In this document: piece by piece, positions 1 through 6,221 of the stretch
Numbering within the stretch: the first letter of the stretch is position 1
Layout: each line of letters opens with the position of its first letter
Virus record (IMG/VR): IMGVR_UViG_2585427792_000015
Reading direction: 5' to 3' (one strand)
Length of the DNA stretch: 6,221 bases
Source: a virus
Lineage: Duplodnaviria > Heunggongvirae > Uroviricota > Caudoviricetes
The notes under the pieces: generated by a model
What the model saw: the letters and a program-made list of their open reading frames with translations, nothing else
What the model was told of the DNA's origin: nothing
The model's database searches: none
Program-made: the position numbers and the translations under genes

Positions 1-140
1 GTTGATGTATCAACACGATTCAACAATACCCGATATTTATTCCATGCCTCCAGCAACGATCTTTCTTCCGCCGTTGCGATTTCCAGATCTACAGCATCCT
101 GCAGTGGCGCAATATACTCACTGAATTCCTGGATGTAGAA
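1..140. repeat. Direct repeat copy A (tfa 3'-end homology)
   Basis: Positions 1-122 align base-for-base with 1050-1171 at roughly 85% identity (hand alignment, not computed); weaker codon-level similarity continues to about 140 / 1189. Confidence 0.7.
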
Positions 141-227
141 CTGTGTGGTGACGGTCTTCCAGCCATTCGGCTCTTGCTGTATCGAAGCATACCAGGCTAT
201 TTCAATATCGCTATGCTGCGGCAGCAT
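1..227 (-). CDS. Tfa-like small protein, partial (3' end runs off the window start); homologous to the C-terminal domain of tail fibre assembly protein
   Basis: Minus-strand ATG at 227-225 with an in-frame TAA immediately upstream (230-228) and an AAGGGG Shine-Dalgarno (complement of 232-237) 4 nt before the ATG. My translation: [75 protein letters not shown]... The last 40 or so residues align with the C-terminus of the full Tfa at 1007-1591 ([41 protein letters not shown]). Not in the supplied ORF track because it is edge-truncated. Confidence 0.6.
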
Positions 228-254
228 TTAACCCCTTGTAATTCATCGCCATAA

Positions 255-283
255 TTGATTTAATTCACAAATAAAACTATAAC
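255..283 (+). promoter_or_regulatory. Candidate sigma70-like promoter for the methyltransferase gene
   Basis: TTGATT at 255-260, a 17-nt spacer, then TATAAC at 278-283, in an A+T-rich 56-bp gap between divergent genes. Pattern match by eye only. Confidence 0.2.
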
Positions 284-952
284 ATGGTGAAATCAATGAA
301 AAAAAACACAGATGATGGGGCTAAAATTTACACACCACTTACCCTAAAGCTTTATGACTGGTGGGTTTTGGGAGTATCAAATCGGCTTGCATGGGGATGT
401 CCTACAAAGGAACACCTTCTTCCACACTTTCTGGAACATGTAGGTAACAACCATCTGGATATTGGTGTTGGAACTGGGTTTTACCTTACTCACGTACCTG
501 AGAGTAGTCTGATATCTTTAATGGATTTGAACGAAGCTAGCCTGAACGCGGCATCTACAAGGGCTGGGGAATCAAAAATTAAACATAAAATTAGCCATGA
601 TGTTTTTGAACCTTATCCCGCGGCGTTACATGGTCAATTTGATTCCATTTCCATGTTTTACCTTCTTCACTGCCTGCCTGGAAATATATCTACAAAAAGC
701 TGTGTAATACGCAATGCGGCGCAGGCCTTAACTGACGATGGAACTCTATACGGAGCCACAATTCTTGGCGATGGAGTTGTGCACAATAGCTTCGGTCAAA
801 AACTGATGCGCATTTACAATCAGAAAGGCATCTTTTCAAACACAAAAGATTCCGAAGAAGGCTTAACACATATACTCTCAGAGCATTTCGAGAATGTTAA
901 AACCAAGGTTCAAGGTACTGTAGTAATGTTTTCCGCTTCAGGGAAAAAATAG
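284..952 (+). CDS. Class I (Rossmann-fold) SAM-dependent methyltransferase, UbiE/COQ5-like; substrate unknown
   Basis: 222-aa ORF ending in TAG at 950-952. Contains the SAM-binding motif I HLDIGVGTGFY, an acidic post-I residue (LMDLNEAS), a motif II-like FDSISMFYLLHC and a motif III-like LTDDGTLYG. The N-terminal LYDWWVLGVSNRLAW resembles the YD...HRLW element of UbiE-type methyltransferases (recalled, not searched). Composition is clearly more A+T-rich than the flanking tail genes. Start is ambiguous: ATG 284 has no obvious SD, while ATG 296 follows GGTGA (286-290) at 5-nt spacing. Confidence 0.8.
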   Translation: MVKSMKKNTDDGAKIYTPLTLKLYDWWVLGVSNRLAWGCPTKEHLLPHFLEHVGNNHLDIGVGTGFYLTHVPESSLISLMDLNEASLNAASTRAGESKIKHKISHDVFEPYPAALHGQFDSISMFYLLHCLPGNISTKSCVIRNAAQALTDDGTLYGATILGDGVVHNSFGQKLMRIYNQKGIFSNTKDSEEGLTHILSEHFENVKTKVQGTVVMFSASGKK

Positions 953-959
953 CATCCAA

Positions 960-992
960 CCGCAGCACGTTCTTGCTTAAGACGTGCTGCGG
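960..992. terminator. Perfect 11-bp inverted repeat hairpin between convergent genes; possible bidirectional terminator
   Basis: CCGCAGCACGT (960-970), 11-nt loop, ACGTGCTGCGG (982-992). Sits between the methyltransferase stop (952) and the tfa stop (1007). On the minus strand a T-run (complement of 944-949) lies about 10 nt past the stem; there is no U-tract on the plus strand. Confidence 0.35.
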
Positions 993-1006
993 CATAATCC
1001 CAATGA

Positions 1007-1591
1007 TTACTCCCTGACAGGGTTCGTAGGCCACTCAATATCAGGTGCAGTTGATGTATCAACACGGTTCAGCAACACCCGATACTTCTTCCAGGCTTCC
1101 AGCAATGAGGTTTCTTCCTCCGTTGCAATTTCCAGATCTGCAGCATCCTGAAGCGGCGCAATATGCTCACTGGCTACCTGCATCAGGTTGTTTTTTGTTT
1201 CTTCCGCCTCCCGGATCCGGAACAGTTTTTCTGCTTCCGTATCCTTCACCCAGGCTGTGCCGTTCCACTTCTGAAACTCCCCTTCCGGCGATAACCAGGT
1301 AACATTTTCCGGTAACGGACCGAGTTCAGAAATAAATAACGCGTCGCCGGAAGCCACGTCATAAACCGTTTTACCCCGATGATCTTCAACGAGATGCCAC
1401 GATGACTCATCACTGTTGAAAACAGCCACGAAGCCAGCCGGAATATCTGGCGGTGCAATATCGGTACTGTTTGCTGGCAGACCTGTATGAGGCGGAATAT
1501 ATGCATCACCTTCACCAATAAATTCATTAGTTCCGGACAACAGATTATAAATTTTTATGGTCCGTGGTTGTTCACTCATTCTGAATGCCAT
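1007..1591 (-). CDS. tfa: Tail fibre assembly protein (chaperone)
   Basis: 194 aa, [18 protein letters not shown]..., which matches lambda Tfa as I remember it in length and N-terminus. Its ATG overlaps the stf stop in TAATG (1589-1593), the usual stf-tfa coupling. Confidence 0.93.
1050..1189. repeat. Direct repeat copy B (3' end of the intact tfa)
   Basis: Same orientation as copy A; both start GTTGATGTATCAACACG. The two copies bracket the methyltransferase gene. Confidence 0.7.
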
Positions 1592-4500
1592 TATGCAAGC
1601 CTCACAATATAGTTAAATGCGATGTTTTTGACGGTGTTTTCCGCGTTACCAGCAGCGTTAACGGTGATGGTGTGTCCATGTGAACCAATCGCAACGGAGT
1701 GCGTATGAGCACCAATACCGACAGTATGTGCATGTGCACCAGCATTTGCTGCAGTACCAGACAGCGAGTGGGTATGAGCACCTGCTGACTGTGTCTGAAT
1801 ACGTTGATAATACGATCTACTGGAAGAAGTCTCCGGGCTTACTTGATACTGTGAATCCTTGACATAAGTGAACCCACCGCCATCATAAAATGCTAACGCA
1901 GAACCGCCGCCTCCCGGCCAACGAATACCATTACCATGAGTATGAGCACCGGCAGACCCCGTAGAGCCACTCAGACTGTGCGTATGCGACCCGGTGTTAT
2001 TCGTGGATTTAGTGCCGTAATCAAACGACGATGTGGTTTTCGTCCCCAAATCCGTACTGGATGCGCTGGCGCTGTGGGTGTGCGATTTTATGCCGTCCCG
2101 TTCCTGAGACAATACGGCCCGGCCACTGGCGGGTTTGCCCTTGATTGTCCAGCCGCGCATATCTGGAATAACACCTGAAGGATAGGCAATAGCCAGTTTC
2201 GGATATGCTGCCTTATCAAACGTCTGCCCCTGCATGATTGCATAACCTGCAGGTGGTGTATCTGATGGCCACGGCAGCGGAACACCTGGCGGAAACGCTT
2301 CAATATTTGCCGAGCCGTCAAATTTTACGCCGTTAATTGTCCTTGCAGTTTGCAATTTGGTTGCTGTGCTTGCATTACCCGATAAAGATCCAGTGATACC
2401 ACCACTCGCGTTTAATTTAGTTGCAATTGTAACATTGCCAGTATGGTTACTAATTATAAACGGCCTTAAGCTATTGTGCGTACCAAGACTGTTACCCGAA
2501 TCTGTCAACATAAAATATGTGTTTGATCCATCATTTCGGATAAAGAATCCATAGTTGCCATAGGCAATACGCAGACCATTTGCTGACCTTGAAATAACCT
2601 CACCAGCAGCAGTTAAACCACCTGAAAGAGTCCCTCCAGTTAATGCCAATGCCCCAATATTTGAAGGGGTCAATGTGATATTTGCACTACCATCAAATGA
2701 CACACCGTTAATCGTTCTGGCTGCCTGAAGTTTCGTGGCGGTCGCAGCATTACCTGTAGTGTTTTGATTACCGGTAGCGTTGACTCCAGGCAAGTTGATA
2801 TCTGCCGATCCATCAAATGCCACGCCCCCAATCTTACGTGCTGTCTTGATCTTGGTCGCAGTATCTGCGTTTCCGGTCAAATTACCAGTAACACTACCAC
2901 CAACTTTTAGTCCATTACCGATGGACACCAACCCTGATCTTAAGTTTATAGAGAATGGTCTTAATGAACCGATGTCTCCATTTTCCCCCTCCCCTTCATT
3001 AGTCGGAATAAGATGAAGATAATCTTCGGAACGCCTAAAAATAAGGCCAAAGGCTTGGTTGAATATTCGAAGAGCATTTATCGTGCTGATTTTTAACTGC
3101 CCTCCCATTGTGTCGCCAGTTTTTTGAACTGAACTATCTTTAACAGTTTTAACTGCCTTTGGCGTTGCCGCCAGCTTTTCACTGGTGCTGTTTGTTGCAC
3201 TGCTGAGCTGTACTATCCCCTTTTTCGTCGTGCTCGCATCCTCAAGCCCCACGGCGGATGCAATATCCTCTGCCCGTTTTGCCGCTGTTTCGGCACGCGT
3301 TGCCGCGGATTCAGCAGCAACTTTGCTCTGAGATGCCGCCGTCGCACTGCCTGCCGCCTCTGATGCTTTCGTTGTTGCTGTCGTGGCACTACCTTTCGCT
3401 GCTGACGCTTGTCTGGTCGCCTCATCTTTTGAAGCAGACGCAGATGATGCCGATGACGCCGCTGAACTGGCTGACGATGCGGCTGCCGCCTTAGAGGAAG
3501 CAGCATTGTCTGCTGAAGTCTTTGCATTTGTTTCAGAGGTTTTTGCTGCAGAAGCAGACCTCGCTGCTGCAGTGGCTTGCTCAGTGGCTTTGCCAGCCTT
3601 CGTTGTGGCTGTTGAAGCGGATGATGCGGCGCTTTCTGCCGATTTTCCGGCGGCGGTGGCACTGGCTGAGGCCTGCCCGGCACTTGTTGACGCGGCACTG
3701 GCAGATAATGCAGCCGCTGTTTTTGAACCTGCCGCAGCCGAGGCGCTCTGTCCCGCTGCCGTTTCAGAAGACCTGGCGTTTGTCTCAGACGTCTTTGCCG
3801 CCTTCGCGGAATTGCCTGCCGCCGTTGCCGAGGAAGCGGCACTACTGGCGCTTGATGATGCGTTCGTTTCTGATGATTTCGCTGCCTCTTTTGAGGCCGC
3901 CGCATCCCGGGCTGAGGTGGCTGCTTCTGACGCCTTCGTGGTCGCGGCGGATGCAGAAGTGGCTGCTGATTGTTGTGACGCTTCCGCATTCGTTTCTGAC
4001 GTTTTCGCCGCACCGGCACTGGTAGCTGCCGCGCTTTTTGAGGACTCTGCAGCAGCAGCACTTTTCGATGCTTCACTGGCCTTTGTCGATGCCGTTCCTG
4101 CGCTGGAAGACGCTGACTGAGCCGACGACGCGGCCTGTCCGGCTGACGTGCTGGCGGCACGTGCTGAGGCTGCAGCATCGGTTGCATGAGTTACCGCCTC
4201 GCTGGCTGATGCACTGGCATCGCTGGCTGATTTTTTCGCGGCTGCCGTATTCTGTGCAACCGCGGAGGCGTTACGTGACACCTCTTCCACCATCTGCTCA
4301 AAGCGGCGCAGTGCCTCCGGCCGGACATCATCCTCCGTCATGGCACCGAGAAAATCATTCAGCGTACCTGGTCTGGAACCTTCATAGACGGTAATGGTCC
4401 CGGCATGTGAAGGCGGAAAACCTTCAACCAGCAGGGTGACGCTGTACTGCCCGTACTCAACGTCCATGCTGTAACGCCCGGCTTCATCCGGATTTTCTGA

Positions 4501-4617
4501 GGCCAGCGTGTTCACCACCACCGTGGTGCTGTTACGTTTTGCTTTCAGCTGGATTGTGCAGTTCTGTACCGGTTTTCCTGTGCCGTCTTTCAGTACACCT
4601 GAAATCTTTACTGCCAT
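1591..4617 (-). CDS. stf: Side tail fibre protein
   Basis: Single uninterrupted ORF. The track starts it at a GTG (4623); an ATG at 4617-4615 gives [26 protein letters not shown], the lambda Stf N-terminus as I recall it, with a GGGG-containing SD 5 nt upstream. Has a long Ala/Ser/Thr-rich region with four AAKTSETNA units, three copies of a roughly 23-aa TATKLQ(T/A)ARTINGV.FDGSANI repeat, and a C-terminal His-rich GAHTHS / HxH region ending [15 protein letters not shown]. Confidence 0.93.
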
Positions 4618-4626
4618 ATTCACCCC

Positions 4627-4681: not shown

Positions 4682-5281
4682 TCAGAATTTATAACCGACA
4701 CCCACGATGAAACCGTCAGTGCGCCAGTCACCACTGCCGGAGCCTTCATAAGCAATATCAATGGCCACGGATTCGGTCGGGTTAAACTGCACGCCAGCCC
4801 CCCACGCCAGAGACGTGTTGCTGTGGCGACCGTCATCACTTCCGGTCAGCACATCGTGCTTTTTCCCCTTGTTGTCAGTTACGCGAAGATAATCCCCGGA
4901 GAAAGTCGACACACGGCTGTAAGCTACACCCGCCATCGCATACGCGCTGAACCATTCATTCACGCGCACAGACGGCCCCGCCATTACGCTGAACCAGCGG
5001 TTACGAACGGAATCTTCATGCCAGCGGGTATCGCTGTAACGGGTCAGCTGGCGATTCTTGTCTCCTGCATAGCTGAATGACGTCACCATCCCCAGTGTGT
5101 CCGTAAACTCATAACGGTATTTCACGTTAATCCCGTTCAGATCATCGCTGCCGGGGACGTTCGTCGAGGCATGAAGATACCCCGCGCTCAGCGTGGACTG
5201 ATGTTCAGACGCCCATGCAGGCGCACCGGATACGGCCAGACAAATGGCTGCGGACAAAATTGCTGCACAAACTTTACGCAT
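4682..5281 (-). CDS. lom: Lom, outer-membrane beta-barrel protein of the Ail/Lom family
   Basis: 199 aa with a Sec-type signal peptide (MRKVCAAILSAAICLAVSGAPAWA) and the C-terminal DIAYEGSGSGDWRTDGFIVGVGYKF with terminal Phe typical of OMP barrels; matches lambda Lom as I recall it. GAGAGG SD upstream of the ATG at 5281-5279. Confidence 0.93.
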   Translation of the reverse strand: MRKVCAAILSAAICLAVSGAPAWASEHQSTLSAGYLHASTNVPGSDDLNGINVKYRYEFTDTLGMVTSFSYAGDKNRQLTRYSDTRWHEDSVRNRWFSVMAGPSVRVNEWFSAYAMAGVAYSRVSTFSGDYLRVTDNKGKKHDVLTGSDDGRHSNTSLAWGAGVQFNPTESVAIDIAYEGSGSGDWRTDGFIVGVGYKF

Positions 5282-5351: not shown

Positions 5352-6221
5352 TCAACGAATACTGATGCCGGAAGCGGCTTTTTTGGTCACAATCACCGTA
5401 CAGTCGGTGATATTGCCTGCCCCCTGATTGCCTTTCTGGAAAATCTTAAACTCCAGAGTGACGCTTCCCCTGCCACTCGGCATATCAATAACTGCACTGT
5501 AACTACCGGGAATGGCCCCTTTAGTTTCTCTGGATGCGATTAATACGCCGTTTTTGCGAACTTCAAAACCATAACCCGTGTATCGCGTGCCTCCTGGGTT
5601 ATTTCCGCTCCCCGGATCGTCATACGCTATACCGTTAAAAATAATGGGCGGAATAATAATCTGGCGGTCAAAGTTATGATCATCGCTGATGGTGACTGTA
5701 ACCGTACCGTTTGGTGTTTCCGTGTTACCCCACGTACCGACTTTTTTCGGGAAGGCTTTTGATACAGCTTTAACGAAATCTCCTCTGACCTGGGTCGCCT
5801 CCAGCATGCCCTTAATCGTACAGTTCTGGTTAATCGTGACATTGTTGAGCGTTCCTGAGTTCGCATTCACACTGCCACTGATATCCGCATTTTTCGCCGT
5901 CAGTCTCCCGTCTGATGTCAGGGAAAATGCCGGAGGATTACCGCCGCTGGTAATGGTGGGGGCCGTCAGGCGTTTCAGGAACACTTCATTCATGAATATC
6001 TGATCGCCCTGACCAACAAACATCGGCTTTGTGTTGCCATTCGCAGGATTAATCATCGCAATCCTGTCTGCTGCCAGCAGCACCTGACTCTGCATGCCGT
6101 CAGGGGTGTTCTCAATACCGGCACCGATACCCGCAATATAAAGGCGTCCGTCCTGCATCTGCTGCAGCTTCACTGCCCACATGCTGTTCAGGTTATTATT
6201 TGTATCAACCTGAACCTTCTG
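5352..6221 (-). CDS. J: Host specificity / central tail fibre protein J, C-terminal part (5' end off the window)
   Basis: The track ORF 5352-6182 begins at an internal Met; I translated 6183-6221 in the same frame (QKVQVDTNNNLNS) and found no stop, so the gene continues past the window end. Identity is inferred from its position directly upstream of lom and stf in a lambda-type arrangement, not from a remembered sequence. Confidence 0.8.
   Translation of the reverse strand, partial: QKVQVDTNNNLNSMWAVKLQQMQDGRLYIAGIGAGIENTPDGMQSQVLLAADRIAMINPANGNTKPMFVGQGDQIFMNEVFLKRLTAPTITSGGNPPAFSLTSDGRLTAKNADISGSVNANSGTLNNVTINQNCTIKGMLEATQVRGDFVKAVSKAFPKKVGTWGNTETPNGTVTVTISDDHNFDRQIIIPPIIFNGIAYDDPGSGNNPGGTRYTGYGFEVRKNGVLIASRETKGAIPGSYSAVIDMPSGRGSVTLEFKIFQKGNQGAGNITDCTVIVTKKAASGISIR

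Follow-up and report, generated by a model that had tools for sequence, protein, structure and literature searches.

The stretch of DNA analysed here, hereafter the window, comprises 6,221 nucleotides (nt) of the virus record IMGVR_UViG_2585427792_000015 and represents the distal tail region of a lambdoid prophage. It contains one intact tail fibre assembly (tfa) gene, and its left end is occupied by a second, much smaller open reading frame (ORF) on the minus strand, whose product resembles only the C-terminal part of a Tfa protein. Why should a prophage that has a complete tfa gene carry such a fragment, and does the fragment serve any purpose? The first-pass annotation of the window offered three answers, namely a minimal chaperone, a relic of a second tail-fibre cassette, or a pseudogene created by insertion of a cargo gene. 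Judging from its sequence, the ORF is a homologue of tfaX of Escherichia coli K-12 (b0563, 'protein TfaX', in the cryptic prophage DLP12); that is, the gene is already known. We think it probable that tfaX is a chimeric relic, which hitchhikes with a neighbouring methyltransferase cargo gene and passively provides homology. Among the three answers, a relic or pseudogene-like nature is therefore the best supported, but not in either of the forms proposed.

The start codon of the ORF is the ATG at 227-225 on the minus strand. It is preceded by the Shine-Dalgarno (SD) sequence AAGGGG at 240-235 with a spacer of 4 nt, and an in-frame TAA stop codon (228-230, minus strand) abuts it on the upstream side, so that the start, SD sequence and upstream stop previously described for this ORF are confirmed. 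The visible part (1-227, minus strand) covers codons 1-75 and 2 further nt of a gene whose complete form has 88 amino acids (aa). Residues 31-75 match positions 75-119 of the 131 positions of the Pfam profile Caudo_TAP (E = 6.8e-17), and residues 31-87 of the inferred 88-aa protein match positions 75-131 (E = 5.7e-25). Alignment of the two Tfa sequences of the window at the DNA level gave a direct repeat of 85% identity between 1-134 and 1050-1183, the latter lying on the minus strand within the 3' end of the intact tfa gene. Both the ORF and its similarity to Tfa are real and far beyond chance.

No exact copy of the whole window was found among complete E. coli genomes and phage records; the best match had 96% identity over 93% of the length, because the tail fibre gene stf is mosaic. 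We therefore inferred the end of tfaX from relatives that are 99.9% identical over the first 1060 nt. Eco889 is such a relative, as are many E. coli chromosomes; among 5426 complete E. coli genomes, 3790 contain at least 80% of window 1-1060. In Eco889 the frame continues for 13 more codons and ends with a TAA codon 40 nt to the left of the window, giving 88 aa, and the in-frame disruption just past the window that the first-pass annotation had considered does not occur there. The last visible bases of the window (..TCA AC) agree with the intact 'TSTAP' class of tfaX and disagree with the truncated 'TSVA..' classes, and the rare A53 allele is common to the window and Eco889.

As for the identity of the gene, the K-12 TfaX protein equals the window ORF over residues 1-61 except at position 53, which is Glu in K-12 and Ala in the window. 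K-12 tfaX then ends after 61 aa by a change of TGG to TGA (W62*), and the homologous sequence goes on past this stop. In DLP12 the order of genes is tfaD, ybcY (a methyltransferase gene, which is a pseudogene there), tfaX, appY and ompT. The same divergent arrangement of tfaX and methyltransferase gene, with a spacer of 56 nt (starts at 227 and 284 of the window), occurs in K-12, in phages ev243 and PhiR68_2, and in our loci L007-L011. The 88-aa TfaX also matches the family phrog_2341 over its full length (1-88 of 88, E = 1e-60). Thus, tfaX is a named and widespread ORF of E. coli prophages, and annotation pipelines have already flagged it as a partial tail fibre assembly gene; PGAP labels the Eco889 copy 'tail fiber assembly protein, incomplete, missing N-terminus'.

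The protein had been described as about 35 unique residues fused to a Tfa C-terminal domain. The Tfa match stands, and the N-terminal part is unrelated to Tfa, but it is not unique. Residues 3-37 correspond to positions 2-36 of the 79 positions of the family phrog_3893 (E = 2.8e-7), and tail fibre assembly PHROGs are matched by residues 29-87. With residues 1-40 as the query, we found short Citrobacter proteins having the same start and another continuation (…TTQRFVQGLSKV…), and in phage Ayreon the start of tfaX is followed by this Citrobacter-type continuation, broken by a stop codon. An intact phrog_3893 gene is present in an e14-like element of E. coli GF8 (locus L006, 5010-5252), directly upstream of a gene for a UmuD-like S24 peptidase. 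It has the same leader as tfaX, AAGGGGTTA-ATG, and its product of 80 aa matches phrog_3893 over the full length (E = 1.3e-36). The family is conserved in length (79-80 aa) in Klebsiella, Enterobacter, Raoultella, Citrobacter, Salmonella and Pantoea. The 'orphan' N-terminus of TfaX is now explained as the start of a gene of this family.

The gene is chimeric in origin. When compared codon by codon, tfaX tracks the phrog_3893 genes of GF8 and Ayreon to codon 34 and tfa from codon 36; the 5' end of a phrog_3893-family gene is joined in frame to the 3' end of a tfa gene. Three segments can be distinguished on the minus strand. The phrog_3893-derived segment (132-241) includes the SD sequence, the ATG and codons 1-32. 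The fusion junction (123-131) consists of codons 33-35, where the parentage switches within a short microhomology, CAGGAA in tfaX and the phrog_3893 genes and CAGGTA in tfa. The Tfa-derived segment (1-122) holds the visible codons 36-75 and is defined by the Caudo_TAP match, the 85% repeat and the codon comparison. In the common tfaX allele, CTG stands in place of the conserved start of the phrog_3893 proteins (the Met of MPR), and the remaining start is the upstream ATG with its short spacer. Since the SD sequence and the start of tfaX belong to a phrog_3893-type gene, the start at 227 is a genuine one and not the remnant of a longer disrupted tfa frame, which had been named as a possibility. 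Among Tfa proteins, none was found that is longer and has the 35 N-terminal residues of TfaX in its interior; the longer matches were read-through or frameshift variants.

Several observations on the phrog_3893 family are added here. Many NCBI records give its members (P0140-P0237) the label 'DNA polymerase V', which looks like a misnomer. Homology to UmuC or UmuD was rejected as the meaning of this label, because the family consists of proteins of 79 aa whose genes precede a UmuD-like gene; the protein had no match over threshold in Pfam or NCBIfam, and it is perhaps a regulator of the umuD-like gene. In the GF8 element, the UmuD-like peptidase gene is frameshifted within about 11 tandem CCAG units (L006, 5320-5375), and this tract might be prone to slippage. 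In phage Ayreon (L003, 4204-4345), a long stf gene (1254 aa), whose type is not that of the window, is followed by only a tfa 3' relic of 32-43 codons, a 3' remnant of the methyltransferase gene, and the 5' part of tfaX running into a disrupted phrog_3893-like sequence. To judge from this arrangement, several recombination scars lie nested in Ayreon, a single phage whose record is that of a complete genome.

The predicted fold of the phrog_3893 protein is confident and compact (predicted local distance difference test score, pLDDT, 91.3; predicted template modelling score, pTM, 0.81) and consists of helix 1, a hairpin, helix 2, helix 3 and two strands. A fold search of this model against the PDB gave weak winged-helix hits (E at least 0.09). 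The fusion point falls within helix 2 of this fold, and therefore tfaX holds about half of that domain. The AlphaFold model of the chimera itself was poor (pLDDT 57.6, pTM 0.34, the C-terminal 20 residues below 50). On the Tfa side, work on Mu Tfa has assigned fibre binding to a variable N-terminal domain and oligomerisation to a conserved C-terminal helical domain (PMC9608196), which agrees with the earlier view that Tfa proteins are conserved in their C-terminal part. The C-terminal part of TfaX holds the IAPLQDA...YRVLLNRVD...DIEWP motifs of Caudo_TAP, and nothing in TfaX matches profile positions 1-74, which represent the fibre-binding N-terminal domain (Caudo_TAP_N). TfaX is therefore most likely not a chaperone.

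The methyltransferase gene and tfaX travel together. From the loci compared, the pair appears to form a cargo ('moron') unit of about 1 kb at the distal end of the tail-fibre region in many Escherichia prophages. Its surroundings vary: lambda-type stf-tfa modules precede it in the window and in L008-type loci, P2-type H/G or a tailspike (L011) in others, and in L007 it follows P2 gpD and just a tfa relic. In phage ev243 another kind of fibre module comes before the unit, phage PhiR68_2 has both pin and a ynaE-family gene separating it from tfa, and in K-12 it lies within DLP12. The block that these loci share extends from about 15 nt past the tfa stop codon to 20-40 nt short of the tfaX stop codon. 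In 159 of 201 locus records, which are partly redundant, the methyltransferase stop codon is followed after 52 or 54 nt by a tfa 3' end; 80 of these flanking ends belong to full genes and 79 are short relics, nearly always of the …WPTNPVRE allele.

The same position can be taken by other cargo. In the enterohaemorrhagic E. coli (EHEC) strain H19, a tfa relic of 92% identity is present on the potB side without the phrog_3893 part (L213, 3728-3877). In an H19 prophage at the same potB site, type III secretion system (T3SS) effector genes (NleG-family genes, espW and espM2) replace the methyltransferase gene (L215, 8215-15128), and they lie between the relic and a fibre module that has no annotated tfa.

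Recombination has taken place within the tfa part of tfaX. Seven different C-terminal tails were seen (TSPAE, ANPVRE, EEPDTM, AVPVME, QQPVS, VAPQ and SQP), each tied to its own downstream flank, and two classes of the middle part (SEY…EEER…WN and SEH…EEEN…WK) reassort among these tails. Between L001 and L065 there are 0 differences in the N-terminal part (codons 2-33, 96 nt) and 13 in the C-terminal part (147 nt), and the C-terminal parts of class B are 96-97% identical to a full-length tfa gene. A CCGCAG…CTGCGG hairpin, typical of tfa 3' flanks, is found in several downstream flanks of tfaX (clusters 1, 3, 4 and 6), and the window has a hairpin of the tfa-3'-flank kind at 960-992. Exchange at such sequences has a known precedent: lambda picks up marker cassettes set in stf/tfa homology to Rac or Qin of 88-96% identity with a frequency of about 2e-6 per phage, in a process of homologous recombination dependent on phage Red-beta and host RecA (De Paepe et al., PMC3945230).

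The state of tfaX was then compared among IMG/VR contigs. These were sampled by an exact 29-mer in the N-terminal part, a criterion that is blind to the state of the remaining ORF, and gave 77 assessable copies, which are not phylogenetically independent. The ORF was intact (86-89 aa) in 55 copies, the last 13 Tfa residues were replaced in 13, and premature stops were present in 9 (W62* on more than one background, Q29*, Q33* and a frameshift); a W12* allele was also seen. That is, tfaX was disrupted in 22 of the 77 copies, as compared with 5 of 77 for the methyltransferase gene, which is 2.5-fold longer and was intact in 72; its frame lay at the same fixed distance from tfaX as in the window throughout the sampled copies. 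A broken tfaX beside an intact methyltransferase gene occurred 19 times, and the reverse once. Phage PhiR68_2, known from a complete genome record (host E. coli ECOR13), carries W62*, and in phage ev243 the last 13 residues of TfaX are replaced.

The substitution pattern differs between the two parts of the gene. Polymorphism in the N-terminal part comprised 9 synonymous, 16 nonsynonymous and 2 nonsense variants; the corresponding figures for the methyltransferase gene were 28, 31 and 0. The pairwise ratio of nonsynonymous to synonymous substitution rates (dN/dS) of the N-terminal part was about 0.5, a value that comes from 2 synonymous and 4-5 nonsynonymous changes and is based on too few of them to separate neutrality from moderate constraint. 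In the C-terminal part, dN/dS was 0.70 for the L011 allele, which has changed at positions conserved in Tfa, and the other comparisons gave 0.15-0.24. The low dN/dS of the latter goes together with a dS of 0.6, much higher than the 0.12 of the N-terminal part, and this combination points to imported sequence.

These findings can be put together as follows. In an old illegitimate or microhomology-mediated join, the ribosome-binding site, the start and about 34 codons of a phrog_3893 gene, whose 79-aa product is encoded upstream of umuD-like genes and is predicted to be winged-helix-like, would have been linked to the last 53 or so codons of a tfa gene. Because the join happened to be in frame, it would have produced an ORF of 88 aa standing back to back with a ybcY-type methyltransferase gene, and the pair would since have moved jointly. 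The protein, keeping just the conserved helical oligomerisation domain, would most likely be no chaperone and would be dispensable; that is, TfaX would have no function of its own as a protein. The tfa-derived half of tfaX, together with the tfa 3' end usually present across the methyltransferase gene, would passively offer homology to phage or host recombinases, which could use it to link the cargo to tfa in a different phage. Such a supply of homology would explain why tfaX has spread and why its 3' end is mosaic. The distribution of the breakpoints suggests this role as a homology arm.

There are points that speak against the view that tfaX is a passive relic. About 70% of the sampled copies keep an intact ORF of 86-89 aa, the SD sequence and the ATG are retained, and alleles of only about 80% identity (P0027 and P0032) keep start, frame and length, which would also be expected under some selection. 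The dN/dS values are below 1, though they come from tiny counts and, in the C-terminal part, are confounded by gene conversion from functional tfa. The ybcY/tfaX spacer of K-12 binds RNA polymerase holoenzyme in vitro (PMC3946193). In 42 of the 201 locus records, finally, there is no tfa 3' end on the far side of the methyltransferase gene.

The retention of SD sequence, ATG and frame could be understood if TfaX were functional as a stand-alone Tfa oligomerisation domain, which either acts as a minimal chaperone or poisons the Tfa multimers of co-resident or superinfecting phages. In favour of this, TfaX has the whole of the conserved Tfa C-terminal domain, a domain reported to mediate multimerisation in Tfa proteins (PMC9608196), and the 88-aa form recurs in phage genomes (phrog_2341). 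We nevertheless consider it unlikely. TfaX has no fibre-binding domain; it adjoins a complete tfa gene in the window, and elsewhere it adjoins fibres or tailspikes that have no neighbouring tfa. Nonsense mutation or C-terminal loss has affected it in K-12, PhiR68_2 and ev243. It is disrupted far more often than the gene next to it, nonsynonymous and nonsense variants outnumber synonymous ones in its N-terminal part, and its AlphaFold model is poor. The apparent constraint on the C-terminal part is accounted for by exchange with functional tfa genes. The suggestion that the ORF encodes a minimal chaperone is thus disfavoured by the missing domain, by the truncations in K-12 and PhiR68_2 and by the high rate of disruption.

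Two bolder and related possibilities may be mentioned, which we rate jointly as improbable. The paired tfa 3' ends may constitute a dedicated, recombinase-independent 'docking' system for the capture and swapping of accessory genes by homeologous recombination, or the 88-aa chimera may be kept as a free oligomerisation domain that hinders competing Tfa-dependent phages. If docking were true, any phage with a Tfa-type chaperone gene could take up accessory genes, such as the methyltransferase gene or, in EHEC, the T3SS effectors.

It can also be supposed that tfaX is the remnant of a second fibre cassette (stf'-tfa') of an invertible host-range switch of the Pin/Gin type. Related phages, PhiR68_2 and Kati, have a serine invertase between tfa and the methyltransferase gene, the phrog_3893 parent lies just past the pin-controlled fibre segment in the GF8 e14-like element, and the tfa-derived half must stem from some other tfa gene. 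For the locus of the window this explanation is largely refuted, and we regard it as very unlikely. tfaX is direct, not inverted, relative to tfa. In Eco889, the 3' end of potB lies about 230 nt past the tfaX stop codon and converges on tfaX; this is therefore the end of the prophage, integrated beside potB. No second stf and no invertase was found to the left of tfaX in the Eco889 flank, which holds just the prophage end and potB, so that the leftward extension speaks against the cassette relic considered by the first-pass annotation. A single hix/gix-like core was detected at the locus, inside the methyltransferase gene, and it was not above chance (41 of 200 shuffles). Moreover, the N-terminus of TfaX comes from a gene that is not a fibre gene.

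The idea that tfaX is a pseudogene, left behind by the methyltransferase cargo when this entered the neighbouring tfa gene or duplicated its end, agrees with the position of the cargo between direct repeats of the tfa 3' end and with the PGAP label, but it is scarcely credible, because that tfa gene is complete, the repeats differ by 15%, the stretch between repeat and cargo is the 5' end of another family and not of tfa, and the methyltransferase-tfaX unit also occurs where no full tfa gene adjoins. Both the cassette relic and the insertion-split pseudogene fit the data poorly. We think that tfaX should be regarded neither as a second chaperone nor as a sign of a second host-range cassette.

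The remaining features of the window are as follows. On the minus strand lie the 3' end of J (5352-6182), lom (4682-5281), stf (1591-4623) and the lambda-type tfa gene (1007-1591; 194 aa), which matches Caudo_TAP positions 1-130 of 131 (E = 2.2e-44) and is the real chaperone gene for stf. The Ala/Ser-rich repetitive centre of stf (3213-4187) also contains long overlapping ORFs of 324, 245 and 167 aa in other frames and on the opposite strand; in all likelihood they arise from the repetitive, GC-rich nature of the coding sequence and are not genes.

The cargo gene, a constant companion of tfaX (284-952, plus strand for the cargo gene), encodes a class I S-adenosylmethionine (SAM)-dependent methyltransferase of 222 aa, homologous to K-12 ybcY. 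The palindromic core AAAACCAAGGTT in its 3' end (900-911), which is the single hix/gix-like core mentioned above, resembles the crossover centre of Hin, Gin and Pin sites, and it is also found in PhiR68_2, which has pin. Between the convergent methyltransferase and tfa genes, the stem-loop at 960-992 (-23.9 kcal/mol, z -5.15) is likely to be a bidirectional terminator as judged from its predicted structure, though it has no U-tract. Of the 56-nt divergent spacer (228-283), the part not occupied by the tfaX leader (242-283) holds the sequence TTGATT-17-TATAAC, a promoter-like element put forward for ybcY in K-12 (PMC3946193); the K-12 spacer is bound in vitro by H-NS as well as by RNA polymerase holoenzyme (PMC3946193). 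Scans of the tfaX region with promoter and terminator consensus sequences gave nothing over shuffled expectation. The element (within window 245-300) stops right at the annotated methyltransferase ATG (284). A transcript would then begin within the first codons, and therefore the true start may be the ATG at 296 (MKKNTDD…), which would make the mRNA near-leaderless.

On the strand opposite the N-terminal part of tfaX, PGAP reports a 'DinI family protein, frameshifted, partial' (L212, 3896-3975, about 130-209 of the window, plus strand). We saw no obvious similarity to DinI, and this label is probably inherited from a mis-named protein cluster. A genuine dinI gene adjoins the phrog_3893 gene in GF8 and tfaX in P2-like loci.

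How does the locus compare with known systems? The C-terminal 57 or so residues of TfaX correspond to the Caudo_TAP C-terminal domain of the Tfa proteins (lambda Tfa, Mu U/TfaMu, P2 G; PF02413). In contrast to these proteins, TfaX is without the fibre-binding N-terminal domain, has an N-terminus from an unrelated family, and is not encoded directly 3' of a fibre gene; a complete tfa gene and a methyltransferase gene of opposite orientation separate it from stf. With the phrog_3893 proteins it has in common the SD sequence, the start and the first 34 or so residues (M(M)PR.SDIE.AW..SIQ.EPNG.KTVTTQ.F.QE), but it is without their C-terminal 45 residues, which form helix 3 and the beta 'wing'. K-12 tfaX has the same divergent ybcY-type partner and the same position after a tfa gene. 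It differs from the window gene in being cut to 61 aa beside a ybcY pseudogene, whereas both frames are open in the window (88 aa inferred, and 222 aa), and it adjoins appY-ompT, whereas the unit of the window forms the potB-side end of a lambdoid prophage.

The arrangement of tfa 3' end, cargo and tfa 3' end, with a methyltransferase gene here and T3SS effectors in EHEC, suggests by analogy that the conserved sequence of tail-fibre chaperone genes may act as a joint at which prophage cargo recombines. In this respect the locus resembles the lambdoid cargo loci ('moron' or exchangeable effector loci), in which accessory genes likewise lie between the fibre module and the attachment site; the difference is that the cargo in the window is a single methyltransferase gene.

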